Shown one piece after another: positions 3,299-64,000 of a stretch of 64,000 bases of DNA (position 1 is the stretch's first letter; every line of letters begins with the position of its first letter). The notes beneath the pieces are model-generated. The model saw only the letters and a program-made list of their open reading frames with translations. It did not search any database and was not told the origin of the DNA. A program made the position numbers and the translations under genes. Origin of the DNA: a bacterium (GTDB lineage: Bacteria; SZUA-182; DTGQ01; JAFGSM01); contig JBLIRO010000001.1 of assembly GCA_049472335.1 (NCBI GenBank), positions 87,015 to 151,014 on the forward strand. The letters are read 5' to 3'.

Positions 3299-6200
3299 GT
3301 GGATCAAACCATCAACCTGCTCCACTTAAGGATTAAACAAGAGGACTCTGGTGACCATGTCATCTGTCTCCGGTCGGGCAGCGAAACCTTAGCCGAATCC
3401 CCCGCTCCCCAGGGCATCCTCCATTGGTCGGATATTCCCACCCTGCATGCGATATTCGGCAGACCCGGCCAATCCGTTAAAGGGATAACTCCCCGGGAGA
3501 TATCACCCATAGGCACAAGACTCTACAATGGGCTCTTTCCGGGCCCTATCCATGAAGCATTTACAGAGGCCATCCGGAAAGCAAGATTAAGCCGATCTAT
3601 CATAGACCTTCGCTTTCAGGCGGACGCATCGCACCTCCTCTCACTTCCCATCGAGCTCATCCACCACCCTGAGGAAGGCTATCTGCTTCTTAAACCCTAT
3701 ATCTCCTTCTCCCGCCATCCCCTCCTCGATATCAAACCCGGGGACGCATCAGGTCCGCCCCTAAAAGTCCTCATGTTTGTATCAAGCCCCGAGGATGCCC
3801 CTCCTATCCTGGACTTCGAAAAAGAACAGGACAACATAATCCAGGCCCTTGATCCTTACATCAGCAAAGGGGAAACCATTGTAGACATGCCGGATGAGGG
3901 CACAATGGACACCCTTAAAGAATATTTGGACCGCGGTGGCTACCAGGTACTCCACTTCAGCGGCCACGGGAACTTTGATCCCCGAAAAAACGAGGGATGC
4001 CTGCTCTTTGAAAACCAAAAGGGACAAAAGGAGGAAATCCCGGCTCATCGGCTTGCAGACCTTCTCATCAGCTATCCCAGCCTTCGCCTTGTTTTCCTCA
4101 GCGGTTGTCAGACAGCCCACATTGACTATGACATATTTGCCGGGGTCTCCCAGCAGCTTCTCAAAAACGGTATCCCCATGGCGATAGGGATGCAGCACTC
4201 CGTCTCAGACGAAGGTGCAACCGCATTTGCCTCCTCATTCTACGGGGAGCTTCTCAAGGCCCACAGTGCAGGCTGGGCACTCGCATCAGCCCGCACAGCC
4301 CTCTGGGAGCATAACAAAAACTCCTTTGAGTGGGCAACCCCTGCACTCTATGGGGGCGGATGGATCGGGGAGGTCGTTAACCTTGCAAAAGAACCCCAGG
4401 CGCCCCTGGAGCCCAGGGGAAAACCCAGGGCCTTCTATGCAGGGGTAAGCTATCTGGAGCAGGGATTTGTCGGAAGGCGCTCAGACCTTTGCGCACTCAG
4501 GGGAAAGATCCGCGAAGGGCAGACAGGCATCGCCATCTGCGGGCTGGGCGGCATAGGGAAAAGCACCCTCGCCACCCGTCTTTTGGAAAGGCTTCACTGG
4601 GAAGAAGGCATGGACATCATGGTGTTTCAAAAAGAGGTATCCCCGGAGCAGGTGGTCTCCTCCCTGGGTGACACCCTGGGAGGGGAATGCTCCCGGATCG
4701 GTAAATCTCCTGATCTTCCCTGGGGGAAAAAGCTCACCGCCCTTCACAACACATGGCCTGAGAAAAAAATAGCCCTCCTTTTTGACAACTTCGAGGACAA
4801 CCAGCACCACGACGGCAGCATCAAAGACCAGGAGGTCCGGAAAATGCTCACCGCCCTTTCAGCCATTGACAGGAAAAGGCTCCTGCTCATAATCACCACG
4901 CGGTACTGGCCCGACATCCTTTACCGTCATAACCTGGGGGATATGGGCCTTACAGGAAGCATCAAGAAGATGTACCGCTATCCCGCGCTTCGGGAGTTGG
5001 ATCTTTCCATAAAAAAGGAAATTTACGATCGTCTGGGGGGCCAGCCCAGGTCCCTGGAGCTTCTTGCGGGCCTCCTCCGGACCATGGAGAAGACATGGGA
5101 CACGGTAAAACACAGGGTGTCAGAGGTAGAAGAAGATGCCCGACAGGACCTCATGCTGGATATTCTCTGGGAGGAGCTCAGCCATAAGGAGCGGGATCTG
5201 CTCAAAAGGATATGGGTCTACCGTCTGCCCGTGGACGAGGACGCCCTCACCCTCCAGGCTCAGGAAAGGCCTGTCGATACTCACATAGCGAGTCTGGCAG
5301 ACCGCTCCCTCATCCATGCAGGCAAGGATGAAGAAGATGTCTTTCGGTATTTCATCCACCGTCTCACTGCAGGGTATGTAAAGGACAGGGTCACGGATGA
5401 AGAGGCAAGGGATGCCCACAGGGTCGCTGCGCGCTACTATGAATACCGGCTCAGGAACCAGGAAAAAGACATAGATATTTTCCTTGAGGCCCGTTATCAC
5501 CACCTTGGTGCAGGGAACCTCCGTAGGGCGGCTGAGATCGCCTTTGCTGCTGAAGGTCCCCTGAGGATCTGGGGTCATATCGAAAGGGCACGGCAACTGA
5601 ATCAGGAGACCCTGGAGCGGGCGCCTGATGAGAGGACCCACGCCATTGCCCTGCACAATCTGGGGATCATTGAGCAAGGCCAGGGTGAGTATGAGAAGGC
5701 GCTCTCCATGTATGAGGAAGCTAGAAAGATTGCTGAGCGCATCGGCGATGTGGCTGGGGTTTCAGCGAGCTACCACAATATAGGAGCAATTTATCAGGAT
5801 AGAGGCGACTATGACAAGGCTCTTTCCATGTTTGAGGAATCTAGAAAGATAAAAGAGCGCATCGGCGATGTGGCTGGGCTCTCTAAAAGCTACCACCACA
5901 TTGGGGTGATCTATCAGGATAGAGGCGACTATGACAAGGCTCTTTCCATGTTTGAGGAATCTAGAAAGATTGCTGAGCGCATCGGCGATGTGGCTGGGGT
6001 CTCTAAAAGCTACCACCAGATTGGGAGGATCTACCAGTATCGAGGCGACTATGACAAGGCTCTTTCCATGTTTGAGGAATCTAGAAAAATAAAAGAGCGC
6101 ATCGGCGATGTGGCTGGGGTCTCTAATAGCTTCCACCAGATTGGGATAATCTACCAGGTTCGAGGCGACTATGACAAGGCTTTTTCCATGTATGAGGAAT

Positions 6201-6598
6201 CTAGAAAGATTTTTGAGCGCATCGGCGATGTGGCAGGGGTTTCTGCAAGCTACCACCAGATTGGGAGGATCTACCAGTATCGAGGCGACTATGACAAGGC
6301 CCTCTCCATGTTTGAGGAATCTAGAAAGATAAAAGAGCGCATCGGCGATGTGGCAGGTCTTGCATTTTCATATGGGCAGATGGGAGTCCTCTTTGAAGAA
6401 AAAGAAAATTATGAAGCCGCTTTGGAATATACCTTGAAGGCATTTTCCATAGTGAGCCAAATCGGGTCTTCACATATTCAGCTAGCGGTGACACAACTAA
6501 AACGCCTTCAGAAAAAAATGGGGACAAAAAGGTTTAATACGATCTGGAAAAAACTCACCGATCTGGATGACATACCTTATTTCTTGAAAAACGAATGA
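3299..6598 (+). CDS. CHAT (caspase-like) protease - STAND/NB-ARC-like P-loop NTPase - TPR repeat protein, paralog 1
   Basis: GTG start 7 nt after AAAGGAGGGA. CHAT dyad motifs are VLHFSGHG and LVFLSGCQTA. Walker A is GLGGIGKSTLA and Walker B is IALLFDNFED. Seven 40-aa TPR units of the form xSYHxIGxIYQxRGDYDKALSMFEESRKIxERIGDVAGVS follow. Confidence 0.85.
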   Translation: MDQTINLLHLRIKQEDSGDHVICLRSGSETLAESPAPQGILHWSDIPTLHAIFGRPGQSVKGITPREISPIGTRLYNGLFPGPIHEAFTEAIRKARLSRSIIDLRFQADASHLLSLPIELIHHPEEGYLLLKPYISFSRHPLLDIKPGDASGPPLKVLMFVSSPEDAPPILDFEKEQDNIIQALDPYISKGETIVDMPDEGTMDTLKEYLDRGGYQVLHFSGHGNFDPRKNEGCLLFENQKGQKEEIPAHRLADLLISYPSLRLVFLSGCQTAHIDYDIFAGVSQQLLKNGIPMAIGMQHSVSDEGATAFASSFYGELLKAHSAGWALASARTALWEHNKNSFEWATPALYGGGWIGEVVNLAKEPQAPLEPRGKPRAFYAGVSYLEQGFVGRRSDLCALRGKIREGQTGIAICGLGGIGKSTLATRLLERLHWEEGMDIMVFQKEVSPEQVVSSLGDTLGGECSRIGKSPDLPWGKKLTALHNTWPEKKIALLFDNFEDNQHHDGSIKDQEVRKMLTALSAIDRKRLLLIITTRYWPDILYRHNLGDMGLTGSIKKMYRYPALRELDLSIKKEIYDRLGGQPRSLELLAGLLRTMEKTWDTVKHRVSEVEEDARQDLMLDILWEELSHKERDLLKRIWVYRLPVDEDALTLQAQERPVDTHIASLADRSLIHAGKDEEDVFRYFIHRLTAGYVKDRVTDEEARDAHRVAARYYEYRLRNQEKDIDIFLEARYHHLGAGNLRRAAEIAFAAEGPLRIWGHIERARQLNQETLERAPDERTHAIALHNLGIIEQGQGEYEKALSMYEEARKIAERIGDVAGVSASYHNIGAIYQDRGDYDKALSMFEESRKIKERIGDVAGLSKSYHHIGVIYQDRGDYDKALSMFEESRKIAERIGDVAGVSKSYHQIGRIYQYRGDYDKALSMFEESRKIKERIGDVAGVSNSFHQIGIIYQVRGDYDKAFSMYEESRKIFERIGDVAGVSASYHQIGRIYQYRGDYDKALSMFEESRKIKERIGDVAGLAFSYGQMGVLFEEKENYEAALEYTLKAFSIVSQIGSSHIQLAVTQLKRLQKKMGTKRFNTIWKKLTDLDDIPYFLKNE
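5642..6480 (+). repeat. Coding tandem repeat, 120-bp period, 7 units (six near-identical)
   Basis: Blocks beginning at 5701, 5821, 5941, 6061, 6181 and 6301 are almost identical in register (…ccatgtttgaggaatctagaaagat…gagcgcatcggcgatgtggc…). Confidence 0.9.
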
Positions 6599-8105: not shown

Positions 8106-11100
8106 ATGACAATTAAGGCAAAAGAAATCCGGTTGACTATCGATCAGCATAAAAACATGATCCGTCTTCAGGACAGAGGCATAACCCTGGCGGAATCCCC
8201 CTTAAACCATGAGATCCTTACTTGGAAAGACATGCCAACCCTCCAGGCACTGTTTCGTGGTCCGGGGCAGACTATAAAAAGGATTTCACCCGAAGACCTG
8301 TCCGCACTGGGCACAAGGCTCTATCAAGGATTCTTTCCCGGGGAAATCCATGAAGCATTTACTGAAATCCTCAGGAAGGCAAACCAGAGCCGGACCAGGA
8401 TAGACCTGCATCTTGAAACGGACTCATCGCACCTCATCTCCCTTCCCCTCGAGCTCATCCACCACCCTGAGGAAGGATACCTTCTCCTGAATGACTGTTT
8501 CTCATTCTCACGTCATCCCCTCCTCGGTATGGAACCTGGGGATGCATCAGGACCGCCCCTTAAGATCCTCATGTTTGTCTCAAGCCCTGCGGATGCACCC
8601 CCTATCCTTGACTTTGAAAAAGAGCAGGATAACATCATCTGGGCACTTGATCCTTATATCAGCAAAGGGGAAGCCATTGTCGACATGCCGGATGAGGGCA
8701 CAATCGACACCCTTAAGGAATACCTGGACCGGGGAGGTTACCAGGTCCTCCACTTCAGCGGTCACGGCCTATTTGATCACAAAGAGGGGGAAGGCTGTCT
8801 CCTCTTCGAGAATGACCGGGGACAAAAAGAGGAAATCCCTGCAAAACATCTCGCAAAGGTATTGAAAAACTATCCCAGCCTTCGCCTTGTTTTCCTCAGC
8901 GGTTGTCAGACAGCACGCATTGACTATGACATATTTGCCGGGGTCTCCCAGCAGCTTCTAAAAAACGGCATCCCCATGGCGATAGGGATGCAGCATTCAG
9001 TCTCGGACGAAGGTGCGACCGCATTTGCCTCCTCCTTTTATGGGGAGCTCCTCAAGGCCCACAGTGCAGGCTGGGCACTCGCATCCGCCCGCACAGCCCT
9101 CTGGGAGCGCAACAAAAGCTCCTTTGAGTGGGCAACCCCCGCACTCTATGGAGGCGGATGGATCGGTGAGGTCGTTGACCTTGCAAAAGAACCCCAGGCG
9201 CCCCTGGAGCCCAGGGGAAAACCCAGGGCCTTCTATGCAGGGGTAAGCTATCTGGAGCAGGGATTTGTCGGAAGGCGCCTGGACCTTCGCACACTCAGGG
9301 GAAAGATCCGCGAAGGACAGACAGGCATCGCCATCTGCGGGCTGGGCGGCATAGGAAAGAGCACCCTCGCCACCCGCCTTTTAGAAAGGCTTCACTGGGA
9401 AGAAGGAATGGATATCCTGGTGTTTCAAAAAGAGGTATCCCCGGAGCAGGTGGTCTCCTCCCTGGGTGATACCCTGGGAGGGGAATGCTCCCGGATCGGT
9501 AAATCCCCTGATCTTCCCTGGGGGAAAAAGCTCACCGTCCTTTACAACACATGGCCTCAGAAAAAAATAGCCCTCCTTTTTGACAACTTCGAGGACAACC
9601 AGCACCACAACGGAAGCATCAAAGATCCGGAAGTCCGGAAAATGCTCACCGCCCTTGCAGCCATTGACAGAAAGAAGCTCCTGCTCATTCTCACCACACG
9701 GTACGGACCCGATACTCTCTACCGTCACAACCTGGGGGATATGGGCTTTACAGGAAGCATCAAGAAGATGTACCGCTATCCCGTACTTCGGGAGTTGGAT
9801 CTTTCAACAAAGAAGGAAATATACAATCGTCTCGGGGGCCAGCCCAGGTCCCTGGAGCTTCTTGCGGGTCTTCTCCGGACCACGGAAAAGACATGGGACG
9901 CGGTAAAACACAGGGTATCACAGGCAGAAGAAGAGGCCCGCCAGGACCTCATGCTGGATATTCTCTGGGAGGAGCTCAGCCATAAAGAGCGGGAGTTGCT
10001 CAAAAGGATATGGGTCTACCGTCTGCCCGTAGACGAGGACGCCCTCACCCTCCAGGCACAGGAAAGGTCTGTTGACAATCACATAGCGAGTCTGGCAGAC
10101 CGCTCCCTCATCCATACACGCAAGGATGAAGAAGATGTCCTTCGGTATTTTATCCACCGTCTCACTGCAGGGTACGTAAAGGACAGGGTCACGGATGAAG
10201 AGACAAGGGATGCCCACAGGATCGCTGCGCACTACTATGAATACCGGATCAGGAACCAGGAAAAAGACATAGAGATTCTTCTTGAGGCCCGCTATCACCA
10301 CCTTGGTGCAGGGAACCTCGAAAGGGCGGCCGAGATCGCCTTTTCTGCTGAATCTCCACTGAGGATCTGGGGCCATATCGAGAGGGCGCGGCAACTGAAT
10401 CAGGAGACCCTGGAGCGGGCCCCTGATGAGAGGACACGCGCCATTGCCCTGCACAATCTGGGGATCATTGGGCAAGGCCAGGGCGAGTATGACAAGGCGC
10501 TCTCCATGTATATGGAAGCAAGAAAGATTTTTGAGCGCATCGGCGATGTGGCTGGGATTTCTAATAGCTACCACAATATTGGGAATATCTACTATTTACG
10601 AGGCGAATATGACATGGCTCTTTCCATGTTTGAGGAATCTAGAAAGATTTTTGAGCGCATCGGCGATGTGGCCGGTGTTTCTGCAAGCTTACACCAGATT
10701 GGGATGATCTACCAGAAGCGAGGCGAATATGACATGGCTCTTTCCATGTTTGAGGAGGCTAGAAAGATTGCTGAGCGCATCGGCGATGTGGCTGGGGTTT
10801 CTGCAAGCTTACACCAGATTGGGATGATCTACCAGAAGCGAGGCGACTATGACATGGCTCTTTCCATGTTTGAGGAATCTAGAAAGATTTTTGAGCGCAT
10901 CGGAGATGTGGCCGGTGTTTCTGAAAGCTACCTCCAGATTGGGAGGATTTACCAGGATCGAGGAGACTATGACATGGCTCTTTCCATGTTTGAGGAATCT
11001 AGAAAGATAAAAGAGCGCATCGGCGATGTGGCTGGGGTTTCTGCAAGCTTACACCAGATTGGGAGGATCTACCAGGATCGAGGCGACTATGACATGGCTC

Positions 11101-11615
11101 TTTCCATGTTTGAGGAAGCTAGAAAGATTGATGAGCGCATCGGCGATGTGGCTGGGGTTTCTGCAAGCTTACACCAGATTGGGATGATCTGCCAGCATCG
11201 AGGAGACTATGACATGGCTCTTTCCATGTTTGAGGAATCTAGAAAGATTGATGAGCGCATCGGAGATGTGGCTGGGGTTTCTGGAAGCTTACACCAGATT
11301 GGGATTATCTACCAGGATCGAGGCGACTATGACATGGCTCTTTCCATGTTTGAGGAATCTAGAAAGATTTTTGAGCGCATCGGAGATGTAGCCAGTCTTG
11401 CATCTTCATATGCACAATCGGGCCTTCTTCATGAAGCAAAGGGTCAAAACGAGGCAGCATGTGAGTCTGTCCTGAAGGCATTTATAATTTTTAAAAGGAT
11501 CGGGTCTCCATATGCCCAACAGGCGGGAGAGATTCTTAATCGACTCCGGCAAAAAATTGGGGAGATTAAGTTTGGGACGATCTGGAAAAAATTAACCGGA
11601 GAAGAGATAAGGTAA
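8106..11615 (+). CDS. CHAT protease - STAND/NB-ARC-like NTPase - TPR repeat protein, paralog 2
   Basis: It has the same motif set as paralog 1 (VLHFSGHG, LVFLSGCQTA, GLGGIGKSTLA, LLFDNFED) and nine 40-aa TPR units. Confidence 0.85.
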   Translation: MTIKAKEIRLTIDQHKNMIRLQDRGITLAESPLNHEILTWKDMPTLQALFRGPGQTIKRISPEDLSALGTRLYQGFFPGEIHEAFTEILRKANQSRTRIDLHLETDSSHLISLPLELIHHPEEGYLLLNDCFSFSRHPLLGMEPGDASGPPLKILMFVSSPADAPPILDFEKEQDNIIWALDPYISKGEAIVDMPDEGTIDTLKEYLDRGGYQVLHFSGHGLFDHKEGEGCLLFENDRGQKEEIPAKHLAKVLKNYPSLRLVFLSGCQTARIDYDIFAGVSQQLLKNGIPMAIGMQHSVSDEGATAFASSFYGELLKAHSAGWALASARTALWERNKSSFEWATPALYGGGWIGEVVDLAKEPQAPLEPRGKPRAFYAGVSYLEQGFVGRRLDLRTLRGKIREGQTGIAICGLGGIGKSTLATRLLERLHWEEGMDILVFQKEVSPEQVVSSLGDTLGGECSRIGKSPDLPWGKKLTVLYNTWPQKKIALLFDNFEDNQHHNGSIKDPEVRKMLTALAAIDRKKLLLILTTRYGPDTLYRHNLGDMGFTGSIKKMYRYPVLRELDLSTKKEIYNRLGGQPRSLELLAGLLRTTEKTWDAVKHRVSQAEEEARQDLMLDILWEELSHKERELLKRIWVYRLPVDEDALTLQAQERSVDNHIASLADRSLIHTRKDEEDVLRYFIHRLTAGYVKDRVTDEETRDAHRIAAHYYEYRIRNQEKDIEILLEARYHHLGAGNLERAAEIAFSAESPLRIWGHIERARQLNQETLERAPDERTRAIALHNLGIIGQGQGEYDKALSMYMEARKIFERIGDVAGISNSYHNIGNIYYLRGEYDMALSMFEESRKIFERIGDVAGVSASLHQIGMIYQKRGEYDMALSMFEEARKIAERIGDVAGVSASLHQIGMIYQKRGDYDMALSMFEESRKIFERIGDVAGVSESYLQIGRIYQDRGDYDMALSMFEESRKIKERIGDVAGVSASLHQIGRIYQDRGDYDMALSMFEEARKIDERIGDVAGVSASLHQIGMICQHRGDYDMALSMFEESRKIDERIGDVAGVSGSLHQIGIIYQDRGDYDMALSMFEESRKIFERIGDVASLASSYAQSGLLHEAKGQNEAACESVLKAFIIFKRIGSPYAQQAGEILNRLRQKIGEIKFGTIWKKLTGEEIR
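10440..11520 (+). repeat. Coding tandem repeat, 120-bp period, 9 units (eight near-identical)
   Basis: Blocks at 10501, 10621, 10741, 10861, 10981, 11101, 11221 and 11341 are in register and nearly identical. Confidence 0.9.
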
Positions 11616-14283: not shown

Positions 14284-14419
14284 AAAAATCCTGTCCTTCG
14301 CAAAAAAGAGCTAACCAAATAAGATTGGTTAGCTCTTGACGTAAGGTGCTATTTAAAAATGGTTAAATGAAATCAGTGTTAATCCCACCCCCCCCAAATA
14401 CTCCTGACATTCCACTTAA

Positions 14420-59511: not shown

Positions 59512-60217
59512 ATTTCTCTTTCTCTAAATGTCCTAAAATCATTCGGAAGTTATAAAAAATCCCTTATAATTATAAGGTTATGTTTTTTAAGTATTATTTC
59601 CTGATGATTATTTTATCAGTATAGTAAAGATACTGAAAAAATTCAAACTGGAGAGAAATTTCAGGGAATTTCCGACATCTTTTAGATATTAAAATCTATT
59701 ACGACTTGATAAAGATAAAACAACCTAATATAATTAAAATTATAAGTCTGTTAATTATCAATATACATTCTGGTATACAGGATCTCATCTAAAATCTCTT
59801 TGTTGTTGAATCACTTTTAAAGACAAAATTAAATATATTTATAAACCAAGTTTAAAGTTATTTATTATAATAGCTTAATTATGTTTATAAAAATAACAAA
59901 CAAAGAGTATCAAAAGCTTATTTTGCACATTAGAGCCCCGCCTTATGGAATTTCTTGAGGTTTTTGCCTTTTTCAATCATTTAATCAAATGAAATATATA
60001 GATAAGAAGGCAATACCTGATAAATGATTGATAAATTCAAAAGGGCCTAATATTAATATGGCAAAAAAGGATTTATAGAAGTAATTTTTTTGCATTCTTT
60101 GTATATTACTAACAACTTTGATAAAAACATTATTATTGCCTTGAATGCCAATTAGATATCGAGTTGAGGAGTAATTGAATTGGATCCATGGCTGTCAAGG
60201 TCCATGGAGGTAATACA

Positions 60218-60994
60218 ATGAAAAAGATTATTTTGATCCTTTGTGTTGTAATGATTGCAGTGGGTATCTGTCTTACCGGAGCAGAAGCATACTTCGGCGG
60301 CCTCTTTGCCCCGAATGGACTCCTCAGTAGCGCCTATTATGGCGGTCTTGGTTTTTATGGCGGGCTTTATGGCGGGCTCTATGGCGGCCTTGGCCTTTAT
60401 GGCGGAGGTCTTTATGGTGGGCTCTACGGCGGCCTTGGCCTTTATGGTGGAGGTCTTTACGGCCTTTATGGCGGCCTTGGGCTTTTAGGAGGGCTTTATG
60501 GCGGAGGATTGTACGGCCTTTATGGCGGCGGCCTTGGCCTTTTCGGTGGGCTATACGGCCTTTATGGCGGGCTGTCTCAGATTTCTCCTTTATTAACTAT
60601 AGCTCTTCTGTATAACCAGCTTTTCCCTAGTCTGCTAAATCCAGTTCCATCACCGGTCACATCCACACCGATATCCGTTCCCACACCGATTATTACTGTG
60701 CCGACACCAAATATTACAGTGCCGACCCCGCTTCTTACGGTTCCAACTCCAATAATTACGGTCCCAGCCCCGATAATTAATGTGCCAACTCCTATCATCA
60801 CAGTACCGACCCCCATCGTTACAGTACCTACCCCAATCGTTACAGTACCTACCCCAATCATAACAGTGCCAACACCGATTATTACAGTACCGGCACCGAT
60901 TATTACGGTCCCCACTCCGATCGTTCCCATTCCGCCCCCGGTGACTCCGGTTATAACTCCCATAATCCCAATGATGCCGCTGATTATAACTTAA
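60218..60994 (+). CDS. Secreted repeat protein: Gly-Leu-Tyr-rich half followed by about a dozen TVPTPII heptads
   Basis: GGAGG lies 7 nt before ATG 60218. Signal MKKIILILCVVMIAVGICLTGAEA. Then GGLYGGLYGGLGLYGGGLYG… followed by VPTPIITVPTPNITVPTPLLTVPTPII…. Confidence 0.7.
   Translation: MKKIILILCVVMIAVGICLTGAEAYFGGLFAPNGLLSSAYYGGLGFYGGLYGGLYGGLGLYGGGLYGGLYGGLGLYGGGLYGLYGGLGLLGGLYGGGLYGLYGGGLGLFGGLYGLYGGLSQISPLLTIALLYNQLFPSLLNPVPSPVTSTPISVPTPIITVPTPNITVPTPLLTVPTPIITVPAPIINVPTPIITVPTPIVTVPTPIVTVPTPIITVPTPIITVPAPIITVPTPIVPIPPPVTPVITPIIPMMPLIIT
60676..60933 (+). repeat. Coding 21-bp tandem repeat (heptad TVPTPII) with many synonymous differences between units
   Basis: Units such as acagtgccgaccccgcttctt, acggttccaactccaataatt and acagtacctaccccaatcgtt encode nearly the same heptad with different codons. 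Confidence 0.8.
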
Positions 60995-61082
60995 GGGAGG
61001 GCAATTTGCCTGTATTTTGAATCTGTCAAGCATAAGAGATTTTTGCTTTTATCAAAAGATGAAGCAGATATGTAGTATAATA

Positions 61083-61121
61083 AAGTGGAGCGCAAAAGCG
61101 CTCCACTTTATTATTTGTTTT
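61083..61121 (+). terminator. Rho-independent terminator of the repeat-protein gene
   Basis: AAGTGGAGCGC-AAAA-GCGCTCCACTT forms a perfect 11-bp stem, followed by a T-rich tract. Confidence 0.8.
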
Positions 61122-61157
61122 GATTTTCTCTCTAGGCAGGATTTGATCTTTAATTGT

Positions 61158-61199
61158 TGCTTTTGACACTTTATAACCCTTATGTTATGTTAAATTTAA
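61158..61199 (+). repeat. 41-bp repeat copy 1: sigma70-like promoter and/or Xer(dif)-like site
   Basis: The sequence is GCTTTTGACACTTTATAACCCTTATGTTATGTTAAATTTAA. It reads as TTGACA(61163-68)-17 nt-TATGTT(61186-91). TTATGTTAAAT (61185-95) equals the XerD arm of E. coli dif. Confidence 0.5.
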
Positions 61200-61417
61200 T
61201 CAAAAATATTTACATTTAAAATTTTAATGAGACGGCAAAGAAGCTTCATAGAAGATGTAGGGCACGAAAATGATTTTAGCTTAGGGGATATTGTAATATT
61301 TCTATGCAAAAAGCATTTTAAACAACGCCGAATGTAGGGTAGAGTCCAAGTCTTAATAGACTTCAAATGCAAGATTTGGATTTAACTCTTCACTTCGATC
61401 ATATAGGGATAATAAAG

Positions 61418-61717
61418 ATGAATAAAGATGAAGTAATTCGTTTGATGCGGGAACATTCCGGCTTTTTGATGACCGAATATGGAATTTCTAGAATCGGAAT
61501 TTTCGGATCCGTGGCAGAAGGTAATATGACAGAAGATAGTGATTTGGATATAGTTGTTGAATTCAAGAAGCCAATAGGATTTAAGTTCAATAAACTTGTC
61601 GAGTATCTTGAAAATTTGTTCGGAAGAAAGGTTGATGTGCTGACAATAGACGGTATTAAAAATATAAGAGTAAAAGAGGTTGCGAAAAATATCGAAAGGA
61701 CTTTAGTCTATGTCTAA
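61418..61717 (+). CDS. mntA: Nucleotidyltransferase antitoxin (MntA-like)
   Basis: IGIFGSVAEGNMTEDSDLDIVVEF (GS…DxD). The internal ATG at 61418 gives about 99 aa. It overlaps the next gene by 8 nt. Confidence 0.75.
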   Translation: MNKDEVIRLMREHSGFLMTEYGISRIGIFGSVAEGNMTEDSDLDIVVEFKKPIGFKFNKLVEYLENLFGRKVDVLTIDGIKNIRVKEVAKNIERTLVYV

Positions 61718-62039
61718 ACGTGAAGATTCTGCTGTTATTCAAGATATAAAAGAAGCTATCGATAGAATTATATCATATACAGCAAAAATGGATTATGAGG
61801 ATTTCCTGCGTGATTATAAAACACAAGATGCAGTGGTTAGAAATATTGAAATTTTGGGAGAAGCAGCAAAATTACTATCCGAGGAAACAAAAAGAAGCTA
61901 TCCCAATATACCATGGAAAGACATAACAGGCACAAGAGATAAACTGATTCATGACTATTTTGGCGTAAATATTGATATTGTATGGGATATTGCCAAGAAT
62001 GAGATTCCTTTCCTATCTTCACAGTTAAATGATAAATAA
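61710..62039 (+). CDS. hepT: DUF86/HepT-type HEPN toxin
   Basis: …TGTRDKLIHDYFGVNIDIVWD… carries the R-x4-H HEPN motif. 109 aa. Confidence 0.75.
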   Translation: MSKREDSAVIQDIKEAIDRIISYTAKMDYEDFLRDYKTQDAVVRNIEILGEAAKLLSEETKRSYPNIPWKDITGTRDKLIHDYFGVNIDIVWDIAKNEIPFLSSQLNDK

Positions 62040-62224
62040 ACGGCTGACAATCGGGATTATGTTGTGACGTAACCCCTAATAACAAGTGAAATTAAACATT
62101 ACAAGCAATAAATCCTCTGGCGATTTTCCCTTTCTAATAAAACTGACCATACTTTTCTCGCATGAATTGAATAATAATTAAGATGCATCAAGTCCTGGAT
62201 ATCATTCATCAATTTGTGGCCTTT

Positions 62225-62266
62225 AGCTTTTGACACTTTATATACCTTATGATATGTTAAATTTAA
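62225..62266 (+). repeat. 41-bp repeat copy 2 (38/41 identical to copy 1)
   Basis: The sequence is GCTTTTGACACTTTATATACCTTATGATATGTTAAATTTAA. It reads as TTGACA 62230-35, 17 nt, TATGTT 62253-58. No ORF follows for about 460 nt. Confidence 0.5.
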
Positions 62267-62393
62267 CTTTTACTTTGATTATATAGAGATTTTAGGAATT
62301 TTCGAGAATCAGCCTTTTAATTTTTGAAGATTCCTTTTTACATGGAAATTTTAGAAATTAATTAGAAATTTTAGTTCACATTTACGGTCCTTA

Positions 62394-62529
62394 TTATCAG
62401 GTAAAATATACCTGATAATAGGGGAATTTTAAACTTATCAGGTAAAATTGACCTGATAAAAAATTATCAGGAACTTTTTACCTGATAACAGGCTAAAAAG
62501 GGGATTATCAGGTAAAAACGGCTTGATAA
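62394..62529. promoter_or_regulatory. Four 25-bp palindromes TTATCAGG-N9-CCTGATAA (operator/iteron-like)
   Basis: Sites lie at 62394-62418, 62435-62459, 62464-62488 and 62505-62529 (the last has CTTGATAA). An everted copy, CCTGATAAC…GTTATCAGG, lies at 62633-62665. Confidence 0.7.
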
Positions 62530-62533
62530 TACA

Positions 62534-62696
62534 TTACGCCGCTCCGCGGCGTAACGGGGAGCTAACGCTAACACGTTCAGCATTGGGCCGCGCCGCTGCG
62601 CGTCGCAACCCAACGCTGAACGCGACGTACTCCCCTGATAACCAGTGCAAGGCACCGTTATCAGGGTGCGCCGCGCGTTAGCTCCCTGTTATGTGC
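62534..62696 (+). other. GC-rich multi-stem element (attC-like recombination site or structured RNA)
   Basis: Hairpin TTACGCCGC-tcc-GCGGCGTAA (62534-54). Outer stem GGGAGCTAACGC (62557-68) / GCGTTAGCTCCC (62675-86), extendable to TAAC/GTTA. Inner stem 62574-87 / 62609-22 (13 of 14 pairs). Inner stem CCCTGATAAC (62632-41) / GTTATCAGGG (62657-66). Confidence 0.55.
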
Positions 62697-62724
62697 AGAA
62701 TAGGTATGGGAAATTATCAAGTTT

Positions 62725-63621
62725 ATGGCTGAAGTAAACGAACCCAAAAAACATCACTATGTACCTCAATTTTACTTAAAGAAGTTTTGCTGCATAGATG
62801 ACGAAAATAAAGTTCCAACGATAAGTCGTCATAATCCGTTCCTGATCCAAAAGAGAAGTTCAATTGGCAGAATAGGTTATGAAGATAATCTCTATAAAAT
62901 TACTGATGACGAAATTGAATTATGTATAGAAAGGAATCTAAATAGATATATTGAAACACCAATTTCACAGTCTAAGACGTGGGAAAAGATAGATGAAGGT
63001 ATCCCTGAACTATTGTCTGAAGACGATAAATTAGTAATTTATATATTTATTAGGCATTTGGAGTCTCGGAATATAGAAACCCTAGAGTCCTTGAAAAGTG
63101 AACAAGTCCGAATAAAAGATCCTAAATATAGAAATGAATATTCAATAGAAGAGCATATAATGCATAATCAAATTAGCTCCATTCCGGACGGAGTTGATCA
63201 GTTTTATCTGGGAATGTCAGAAAATATTGATCAGTATTTTGAACAGTATGAGAGAGCATCAGTGTCAATATTTGGGTCTAGTATTCCAATACGAACTTCA
63301 ACTAATCCAGTAGTCAATGTTCCAATGCACACATTTCAAAATAGAGAGTTTAACCCAAATGAATTGGCAAAATGGCTACCACTGAGCCCAAAAATTGGCG
63401 CAATGTTATTTCTAAATGACAATTATTGTAACTTCGGAAAATACCAGGTTGTTGAAAATGAGGTCATTAGAACTCTAAATAGACTTTATCTTATTCAGTT
63501 GCTTAACTCACGGACAACTAGGCATATGGTTGCAAGCGATGAGTACATTTTAGATGATTTTGAATGGGCAGGAGTAAAAGTAGATCCTAGAAACCCAAGA
63601 AAGTTTAGGTGTCCTAGTTAG
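62725..63621 (+). CDS. DUF4238-domain protein
   Basis: The N-terminal KKHHYVPQFYLKKF motif is the hallmark I associate with DUF4238. 298 aa. Confidence 0.65.
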   Translation: MAEVNEPKKHHYVPQFYLKKFCCIDDENKVPTISRHNPFLIQKRSSIGRIGYEDNLYKITDDEIELCIERNLNRYIETPISQSKTWEKIDEGIPELLSEDDKLVIYIFIRHLESRNIETLESLKSEQVRIKDPKYRNEYSIEEHIMHNQISSIPDGVDQFYLGMSENIDQYFEQYERASVSIFGSSIPIRTSTNPVVNVPMHTFQNREFNPNELAKWLPLSPKIGAMLFLNDNYCNFGKYQVVENEVIRTLNRLYLIQLLNSRTTRHMVASDEYILDDFEWAGVKVDPRNPRKFRCPS

Positions 63622-63653
63622 GATGTTGGGTAAGGATAAGTATTATAAAAAAA

Positions 63654-63763
63654 GCACATAACAATAGGTTCGAGAGGGAATTGCCCCCGCAGCACTTGTT
63701 TTGTGCTTTAAACAGCACAAAACAATTTTTACTGCGGCAAGCCCCTCAGCCAAAGTGTTATGT
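63654..63763 (+). other. 110-bp imperfect hairpin, attC-like
   Basis: The ends ACATAACA (63656-63) / TGTTATGT (63756-63) pair. Middle arms GGTTCGAGAGGGAATTGCCCCCGCAG vs CTGCGGCAAGCCCCTCAGCC pair with bulges. The apical stem TTGTTTTGTGCT / AGCACAAAACAA is a perfect 12 bp with a 6-nt loop. Confidence 0.55.
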
Positions 63764-63775
63764 TTCTTTATAGAT

Positions 63776-64000
63776 ATGAAATCAGATAAGAAGATAATAA
63801 GAGCTATTTTAATTTTCTTTTTAGGCGTAGCTGTTGGTATCATAGGTATAGCTGTTGTTATCTTATTTTATCAAAAGTCATTTGAGCTGTTTTCAACCAT
63901 AGCTCCAGCAATCACTACATTGTTAGCTGCATTTTTAGGTGCTTGGTTTGCTTATCTTCTGGCAGACAACAAGGAAAAAAGAAAAGAAATAGCTTTGAGA
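63776..64000 (+). CDS. 5' part of a small membrane protein gene running off the window
   Basis: The ATG at 63776 opens MKSDKKIIRAILIFFLGVAVGIIGIAVVILFYQ…TTLLAAFLGAWFAYLLADNKEKRKE with no stop before 64000. It is absent from the ORF track because it is unterminated. Confidence 0.5.
   Translation, partial: MKSDKKIIRAILIFFLGVAVGIIGIAVVILFYQKSFELFSTIAPAITTLLAAFLGAWFAYLLADNKEKRKEIALR

Follow-up and report, generated by a model that had tools for sequence, protein, structure and literature searches.

Near its right-hand end, the 64,000-nucleotide stretch of contig JBLIRO010000001.1 that we analyzed (hereafter, the window) carries a gene for a DUF4238 protein flanked by a short inverted repeat. This raises the question of whether the gene is an ordinary resident of the chromosome or the cargo of an integron cassette, as a first-pass annotation of the sequence had proposed. 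We favor the second answer: with a probability of roughly 0.87, positions 62689-63757 are an integron gene cassette made up of a promoter-less DUF4238 gene and its own attC site (attC B), lying between the attC of a preceding cassette (attC A) and a third cassette. Covariance models of attC sites, the canonical geometry of the hairpins and the recurrence of the unit in other arrays with a G/TTATGTG junction (the slash marking the crossover point) bore out the proposed 1069-bp cassette, and we regard the comparative evidence, drawn from sequence comparison, as the strongest line for it.

Direct reading of the sequence placed the 5' repeat, TGTTATGTGC, at 62687-62696, 28 nt ahead of the DUF4238 ATG at 62725, and its exact reverse complement, GCACATAACA, at 63654-63663, 32 nt past the stop codon that ends at 63621. 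The right-hand copy opens an imperfect hairpin of 110 nt (63654-63763) with the 3' end TGTTATGT (63756-63763), followed by TT, and the GC-rich element upstream of the gene also ends in GTTATGT, at 62688-62694. All coordinates of the first-pass annotation for the repeats, the hairpin, the GTTATGT ends and the next open reading frame (ORF) proved exact. On the + strand of the 64 kb GTTATGT occurs five times, three of them in the final 3 kb (61184, 62688 and 63757). Compared with shuffled sequences, folding of the hairpin gave z-scores of -5.9 (+ strand) and -5.7 (- strand), and folding of the GC-rich element gave -6.8 and -7.6. The 10-nt inverted repeat is itself modestly unusual, being matched in 46 of 20,000 shuffles that kept the composition of the two 70-nt flanks.

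The R'' box of attC B, GCACATAAC(A), pairs over 10 nt with the start of its own cassette, (T)GTTATGTGC, 9 of them from the R' G onward, and over only 7 nt with the next R', GTTATGTTT. This preference for its own start over the next one is the classic cassette signature, and here too the earlier proposal agreed with what we found. It had also pointed out that the core GTTATGT departs from GTTRRRY; the departure is harmless because bona fide cassettes share it, arr-3 having the R'' box GCATAAC and catB3, in a clinical array, being followed by GTTATGC. Beyond the right-hand junction, the ORF of the third cassette starts with an ATG at 63776, encodes at least 75 aa of hydrophobic sequence and continues past the window end; no family could be assigned to it with confidence, the sole Pfam match, to MgtE, being below threshold.

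An Rfam search of the window returned no family at the gathering threshold and no attC family, and permissive E-values yielded microRNA-like hairpin noise only; we therefore built attC models of our own. The attC scores given here come from two home-made covariance models, with training sites all from outside the window, and not from IntegronFinder's own model. Model R1 was built from 15 bona fide class-1 attCs, taken from eight plasmid arrays located through attI1, with a pairing scheme of 7 bp for R''/R' and of 3+6 bp around a one-base bulge for L''/L'. Model R2 was built from 14 sites, 5 of them class-1 attCs and 9 environmental attCs adjoining DUF4238 homologues. Both strands of the window were scanned (a search space of 128 kb), with filters off for R1, and the E-values, which come from a shortened calibration, are rough.

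The first-pass annotation had suggested a covariance-model check, and with R1 the top match in the 64 kb was attC B on the + strand (19.5 bits, E 0.023), aligned over its full length from R'' ACATAAC to R' GTTATGT. R2 ranked the same site first (19.5 bits, E 0.008) and attC A second (19.3 bits, E 0.0096); the two sites share the + strand and the ending GTTATGT, and these ends are 1069 nt apart. The next-best R2 match in the window was a short hairpin with 13.8 bits. In the controls for R1, a true attC held out of training (dfrA27) scored 22.3 bits, the reverse strands of true attCs scored 13-17 bits and the training sites 36-80 bits; nothing else scored in 107 kb of plasmid DNA, and just 2 matches at E<=1 were seen in 645 kb. 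With R2, held-out class-1 attCs reached 29.6-61 bits and nothing else was found in ~620 kb of genomic loci (default filters). With filters off, unrelated low-GC DNA (98.9 kb) gave no score above 12.2 bits. A short perfect hairpin elsewhere in the window (AGCTAAC...GTTAGCT, 14309-14334) matched the attC models weakly on each strand, with 10.5-13.8 bits; its length falls short of an attC, and it is probably a terminator.

Homologues of the DUF4238 protein at 62-86% protein identity were found in metagenomes and in one genome, in five other, unrelated contexts. The units in the window and at the loci L010/L011, L012, L018/L019, L099 and L100 have in common the start TTATGTG and the R'' box CACATAA(C), and the base before the junction is G in the window, L010, L018, L099 and L100, and A in L012. 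Directly upstream of three homologues lie canonical attCs of other cassettes, scoring 36.1, 23.8 and 13.8 bits. The first of these, at L099 (71% protein identity; E 4e-7), ends ...GGCG/TTATGTGCAGAATA, and by our own count the 36-nt 5' leader of the window cassette is ~78% identical to the L099 leader. The attC with 23.8 bits lies upstream of the L010/L011 homologue (74%) and ends ...AAGTG/TTATGTGC. In Pontibacterium sinense N1Y112 (L018/L019, 62%), the gene is part of an array with four R1 matches of 10.2-29.4 bits, and its unit starts with G/TTATGTGG and has an R'' box, CACATAAC, that overlaps the stop codon. The homologue at L100 (70%) has the start G/TTATGTGT and the R'' box ACACATAAC, and that at L013 (72%) lies in the order TIR-TPR gene, attC, DUF4238, attC, TIR gene, attC, with the variant start TTATCT. 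The closest copy, at L012 (86%), shows blastn homology with window positions 62689-63666 only, that is, from the base next to the crossover G up to a point shortly beyond R''.

Because the same unit with the same ends lies behind different attCs in at least six contexts, site-specific recombination at G/TT is the only explanation that we see for this pattern. The comparisons indicate that the DUF4238 cassette has moved repeatedly in nature, with the same junction behind unrelated attCs in other bacteria. In two of the homologous loci the 3' end of the unit differs. At L010 (10933-11336) the cassette's own attC was not seen, and a Y1_Tnp (IS200/REP-type) gene begins 56 nt past the DUF4238 stop; at L099 (~2340-2520) the R'' box has the sequence CACATAAT, with unrelated structured sequence after it. 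Both may be insertions into cassette attC sites.

Table 1. Features at the right-hand end of the window, in order of position. Bulged bases are bracketed.
Feature	Position	Strand	Details
Direct repeat D2, copy 1	61159-61199	+	41 nt; copies 93% identical
MNT ORF	61367-61717	+	Probable start 61418
MNT-HepT toxin-antitoxin module	61407-62050	+	Pfam NTP_transf_2, HepT-like
HepT	61710-62039	+	Pfam HepT-like
Direct repeat D2, copy 2	62226-62266	+	41 nt; copies 93% identical
Four 25-bp palindromes	62394-62530		TTATCAGGT-N7-ACCTGATAA; repeat family D1, inverted repeats I2-I6
GC-rich extension 5' of attC A	62531-62602	+	~65% GC within a ~35% GC region
attC A	62603-62694	+	3' end of preceding cassette; 92 nt; R2 19.3 bits
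attC A, R''	62603-62609	+	TCGCAAC, then spacer CCAAC
attC A, L''	62615-62624	+	GCT[G]AACGCG
attC A, apical hairpin	62631-62665	+	Half-site as in the upstream palindromes
attC A, L'	62674-62682	+	CGCGTTAGC, then spacer TCCCT
attC A, R'	62688-62694	+	GTTATGT; 3' end of site
DUF4238 gene cassette	62689-63757	+	1069 bp; first T after the crossover G/TT to G of next R'
DUF4238 protein gene	62725-63621	+	298 aa; PF14022 E 6e-19
attC B	63656-63763	+	attC of DUF4238 cassette; 108 nt; best window match with both models; matched on + strand only
attC B, R''	63656-63662	+	ACATAAC, then spacer AATAG
attC B, L''	63668-63677	+	GTT[C]GAGAGG
attC B, L'	63742-63750	+	CCCCTCAGC, then spacer CAAAGT
attC B, R'	63757-63763	+	GTTATGT; 3' end of site
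Next (third) cassette	63758-64000	+	Start TTATGTTTC...; runs off window, 243 nt visible

The lengths of both sites fall within the ~57-141 nt of an attC palindrome with an R'' box ending in AAC and an R' box beginning with GTT (Table 1). In each, a 5-nt spacer separates AAC from 3 pairs, which lead to a one-base bulge and then to 3 or more further pairs, and the 3' side consists of L', 5-6 nt and GTT; both align with the model over the full length and occupy its bulge column. The bulged C of attC B lies 9 nt after AAC, the position that it has in the aadA1 attC (AAC AATTC GTT[C]AAGC), so that the bottom strand carries the canonical extrahelical G, then AAC. When attC A was folded alone, it formed a single bulge in the L box at the canonical position and a truly unpaired 5x5 spacer.

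The mobility that we propose for the cassette follows established integron biology. Once the bottom strand became single-stranded, each attC would fold into a hairpin, with R''/R' and L''/L' paired on either side of a central spacer that stays unpaired; the extrahelical base would show which strand is recombinogenic. The integron integrase IntI, acting in trans, would cut the bottom strand between the A and C of AAC, which corresponds to G/TT on the top strand, and by recombination of attC A with attC B the 1069-bp unit would leave as a circle. In the circle the rejoined R' (G+TTATGTGC) would be the perfect complement of its R'' (GCACATAAC), and the circle could then re-insert at a new position, which may be attI, a different attC or a secondary site in the genome.

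Several observations weigh against reading the unit as a cassette. The attC scores are modest (~19 bits), and an E-value of ~0.01 in 128 kb is borderline for a whole-genome scan. attC A was found by the broader R2 only, the class-1-only R1 giving it 9.7 bits; its R''/R' pairing is weak, and in its wider context the minimum-energy fold is a different, bulge-less 20-bp stem. A check of the extrahelical bases on the bottom strand, also suggested by the first-pass annotation, favored attC B (G, as in aadA1) and went against attC A, which has G as its bulged base on the top strand and C on the bottom instead of the usual G; the identity of this base is canonical in attC B only. In this AT-rich window, 2 of the 40 ORFs that encode at least 150 aa also have a 10-nt repeat between their flanks, and for that reason we base the case beyond chance on the covariance-model scores and on the comparisons with other loci, and not on the repeat alone. 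One homologue (L014-L017, 63% identity) lies in an ordinary chromosomal, non-cassette context, and an integrase was found nowhere, in a search that covered the 64-kb window. More distant DUF4238 homologues (<=39% identity, mostly from sphingomonads) lie in ordinary chromosomal contexts, outside attC arrays.

The missing integrase bears on the kind of integron element to which the cassette belongs. A cluster of attC sites without an integrase (CALIN) is defined by a minimum of two attCs that share a strand and lie within 4 kb of each other, with no intI nearby (Cury et al. 2016, PMC4889954), and the present element is a CALIN under this definition because it has two + strand attCs 1.07 kb apart and no intI in the window. 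The first-pass annotation had likewise described a CALIN-like array with no intI in the window, and both descriptions stand: the two attCs lie on the same strand, and a phmmer search with IntI1 against six-frame ORFs of at least 60 aa found no IntI in the window (best E 0.5). Its placement of the array at the contig end is not established, as the source contig measures 153.8 kb in the protein database. The parts of a complete integron (intI, an adjacent attI and the cassette promoter Pc) were not found together in the window, and attI is not definable by sequence for unknown integron classes. A CALIN may originate when intI is lost or when cassettes insert at genomic sites, or through rearrangement (PMC4889954; bioRxiv 10.1101/2022.09.11.507474).

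The alternative that survives best would have the array belong to a complete, probably sedentary chromosomal integron, and so not to a strict CALIN, with intI and attI outside the window, on another contig or separated by rearrangement. The array may continue past 64000, as the window stops 243 nt into the third cassette of a source contig of 153.8 kb, and about half of all CALINs occur in genomes or replicons that encode IntI elsewhere (PMC4889954). Against this, the orientation of the attCs puts intI and attI on the low-coordinate side, where 62 kb contain no IntI-like ORF, and an intI to the right of 64000 would lie at the wrong end of the array. The low-coordinate DNA is housekeeping sequence, an ABC-transporter locus collinear at ~90% identity with a contig of a related metagenome-assembled genome (L179; GCA_049472415.1, JBLIRS010000224.1). 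An exact search with a 37-mer found no copy in genome and metagenome collections, and the identical ABC ATPase was seen on a 2-kb Logan contig only. We therefore consider a complete integron unlikely, if still worth keeping in mind.

Far less credible is the view that the DUF4238 gene travels on another kind of mobile element, either one resembling a transposon or a miniature inverted-repeat transposable element, with TGTTATGTGC as terminal inverted repeats, or a unit associated with a Y1/HUH transposase. The Y1_Tnp gene at L010, where no attC was seen, is what such a unit would lead one to expect, and the palindrome array upstream of attC A resembles REP-like hairpins. The window, however, contains neither a Y1 nor any other transposase, and there are no target-site duplications. 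The repeats stand in an R''/R' arrangement, the right-hand copy opening a long attC hairpin instead of ending the unit, and the unit ends 94 nt past that copy, at the second GTT; the Y1 gene of L010 replaces the attC and looks like a secondary insertion. Equally little weight can be given to ordinary gene-flanking hairpins, with 63654-63763 a rho-independent terminator, 62531-62694 an unrelated GC-rich element and GTTATGT/ACATAAC a coincidence: although the terminator-like apex of attC B with its T5 run, the flank repeats at 2/40 ORFs and scores of only ~19 bits would suit them, the models rank the sites at the top of 128 kb, on the same strand, at full length and ending at the predicted junctions, and homology breaks off in five other contexts at G/TT (A/TT in L012), with high-scoring attCs upstream.

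With the unit read as a cassette, one segment of the GC-rich element that precedes it, 62603-62694, forms attC A. The whole element (62549-62694) was rejected as one attC; its outer stem lacks a spacer or bulge, and neither model aligned it. We also rejected GTTGCGA at 61679 as a cassette start matching the R'' box of attC A, and attribute it to chance, as it lies inside the intact MNT gene. The extension upstream of attC A, with inverted repeat I16, contains a second, bulge-less copy of the 5' half-site, GCGTAAC GGGGA GCTAACGC. Because this half-site pairs perfectly with the L'/R' arm of attC A, the larger element at minimum energy folds into a 20-bp stem and a three-way junction. A hairpin at 62532-62554 (TTACGCCGC-TCC-GCGGCGTAA) mimics the signature of a start complementary to R'' and is preceded by A, not G. 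The extension could be an ORF-less mini-cassette, a duplication of the half-site or a masking structure.

The four 25-bp palindromes further upstream are spaced 41, 29 and 41 nt apart, and the same half-site is found again in the apex of attC A, where it forms the hairpin. Three exact matches to the palindrome were found against 0.01 expected, and in the 90%-identical relative L179 the palindromes are partly decayed, with no compensating changes. Searches with 62226-62700 found no similarity in plasmid or phage collections and none in Rfam. It is conceivable, though improbable, that 62394-62694 is a composite site in which a canonical attC is joined to a bulge-less half-site that sequesters its L'/R' arm and to ten TTATCAGG half-sites (those of the four palindromes and of the apex), so that, in an integrase-less array, it would act as a protein-controlled switch or landing pad gating the folding and recombination of the attC, or as an attI-like entry point for an unknown recombinase. 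In a milder version of this idea, the transfer of a DUF4238 defence cassette across distant lineages of bacteria may be documented here for the first time.

The left-hand extent of the array was a further point of the first-pass annotation, which began it at 61.1 kb. We found attCs from 62603 onward, and with neither R1 nor R2 did we find one before or after the MNT-HepT module, so the earlier part of the proposed array was not borne out. We rejected the GTTATGT at 61184 as a cassette junction, since it belongs to the -10 region of a promoter-like repeat, lacks a partner attC and shows no conservation in L179. The segment 61407-62048/62050 shares 87-91% nucleotide identity with unrelated metagenome contigs (L180-L182), and this homology stops just past an R''-like box, GGCTGAC AA in the window and GGCTAAC AA in L182. 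By its distribution MNT-HepT is evidently a mobile unit, and it may be a former cassette with a decayed attC. Relatives of HepT at 78-82% identity carry the labels Patescibacteria, Omnitrophota, Scalindua, Planctomycetota, Desantisbacteria and Kentrum, and the module appears to be very widely travelled.

To the left of MNT-HepT, a 1.47-kb segment (59702-61169) is absent from the ~90%-identical L179. It encodes a secreted-looking protein of 268 aa with GGLY-type repeats followed by ~12 TVPTPI-type repeats, and a perfect 17-bp terminator hairpin (61077-61114) follows this gene. The cumulative GC skew reaches its minimum at ~60-61 kb and is positive thereafter, which coincides with the switch from minus- to plus-strand genes; with so little sequence to the right of it, the turn may reflect no more than the direction of transcription. 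Near the other end of the window, 3299-6598 and 8106-11615 encode two large paralogous proteins with CHAT (caspase-like protease) and TPR repeats. Because this region has 45-56% GC and the sequence at ~20-32 kb 27-34%, the composition of the window is strongly heterogeneous. Among named organisms, the best PEP-synthase relatives (Nitrospira and others) reach only ~56% identity.

The assignment of the cargo to DUF4238, also made in the first-pass annotation, was confirmed by a PF14022 match of 68.9 bits (cut-off 27), which covers residues 9-263 of the protein and profile positions 1-272 of 281. In the P2 prophage hotspot, a DUF4238 system consisting of one protein confers strong resistance to T7 (Rousset et al. 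2022, PMC9122126), integron cassettes are known to encode phage-defence systems (bioRxiv 10.1101/2024.07.02.601719), and homologous DUF4238 cassettes adjoin TIR, TIR-TPR and SduA_C (Shedu-like) genes in the arrays at L013 and L018. Because of these three lines, defence is a likely function, and by analogy the window protein is probably a single-gene anti-phage system. The protein had no PADLOC match and no meaningful sequence match in the Protein Data Bank (PDB), and its AlphaFold model (pLDDT 69.5, pTM 0.74) had no fold match in the PDB (best E 0.3, TM <0.2).

Each copy of the D2 repeat contains a sigma-70-like promoter, TTGACA-17-TATGTT with an upstream TG, that points rightward, toward the cassettes. 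The copies are among the region's four best promoter-like sites, with 10/12 consensus positions, and are the only ones with an upstream TG. As Pc is lacking, the DUF4238 gene would most likely be expressed from the promoter-like repeat at 62230-62258. The apex of attC B (63696-63725) is a terminator-like hairpin of 12 pairs followed by TTTTT on the coding strand; attC B may thus double as the transcription terminator of the cassette, and a transcript from the repeat would end there. D2 also contains TTATGTTAAAT, which we take to be the XerD arm of E. coli dif. We rejected D2 as a dif/Xer site: no part of it but the XerD-like arm fits, and the 11-mer shows no enrichment (5 matches, with 3.7 expected).

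Compared with class 1 cassettes (aadA1, arr-3 and dfrA27), the element has the same promoter-less ORF followed by a 3' imperfect palindrome, here of 92-108 nt, with R'' ...AAC and R' GTT..., the same 5-nt spacer, L-box bulge 9 nt after AAC and G/TT crossover, and a start that complements its own R''; arr-3 and catB3 likewise have the core GTTATGY. It differs from them in an attC that is far from the consensus (19.5 bits against 36-80 for training sites and 22.3 for the held-out site), in the G bulge (top strand) and competing alternative fold of attC A, in its AT-rich uncultured host and in a cargo that is no resistance gene. With known CALINs (PMC4889954; IntegronFinder 2, PMC9024848) it shares attCs less than 4 kb apart, no intI nearby, a cargo of defence or unassigned function and an adjoining toxin-antitoxin pair; it differs in that two attCs are visible here because the window ends, and the array may be longer. 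Like the DUF4238 system of the P2 hotspot (PMC9122126), the cargo is a compact one-gene unit with a DUF4238 domain, although it is related to the tested E. coli protein at the level of the Pfam domain only. Judged by their titles, none of the 13 publications listed, out of 18 mentioning DUF4238, concerns integrons.

Integron cassettes of this type are already known as mobile gene units, and the window cassette adds another; it changes no principle of integron biology. What it adds to the cassette catalogue is a well-delimited DUF4238 cassette with base-exact ends in six contexts. In annotation, attC site is the appropriate label for the GC-rich island and for the long hairpin, and the DUF4238 gene should be flagged as mobile. 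Cassettes of this type occur both in a deeply branching uncultured bacterium and in a gammaproteobacterium (Pontibacterium), and the finding fits the recent view of integron arrays and CALINs as stores of anti-phage genes.

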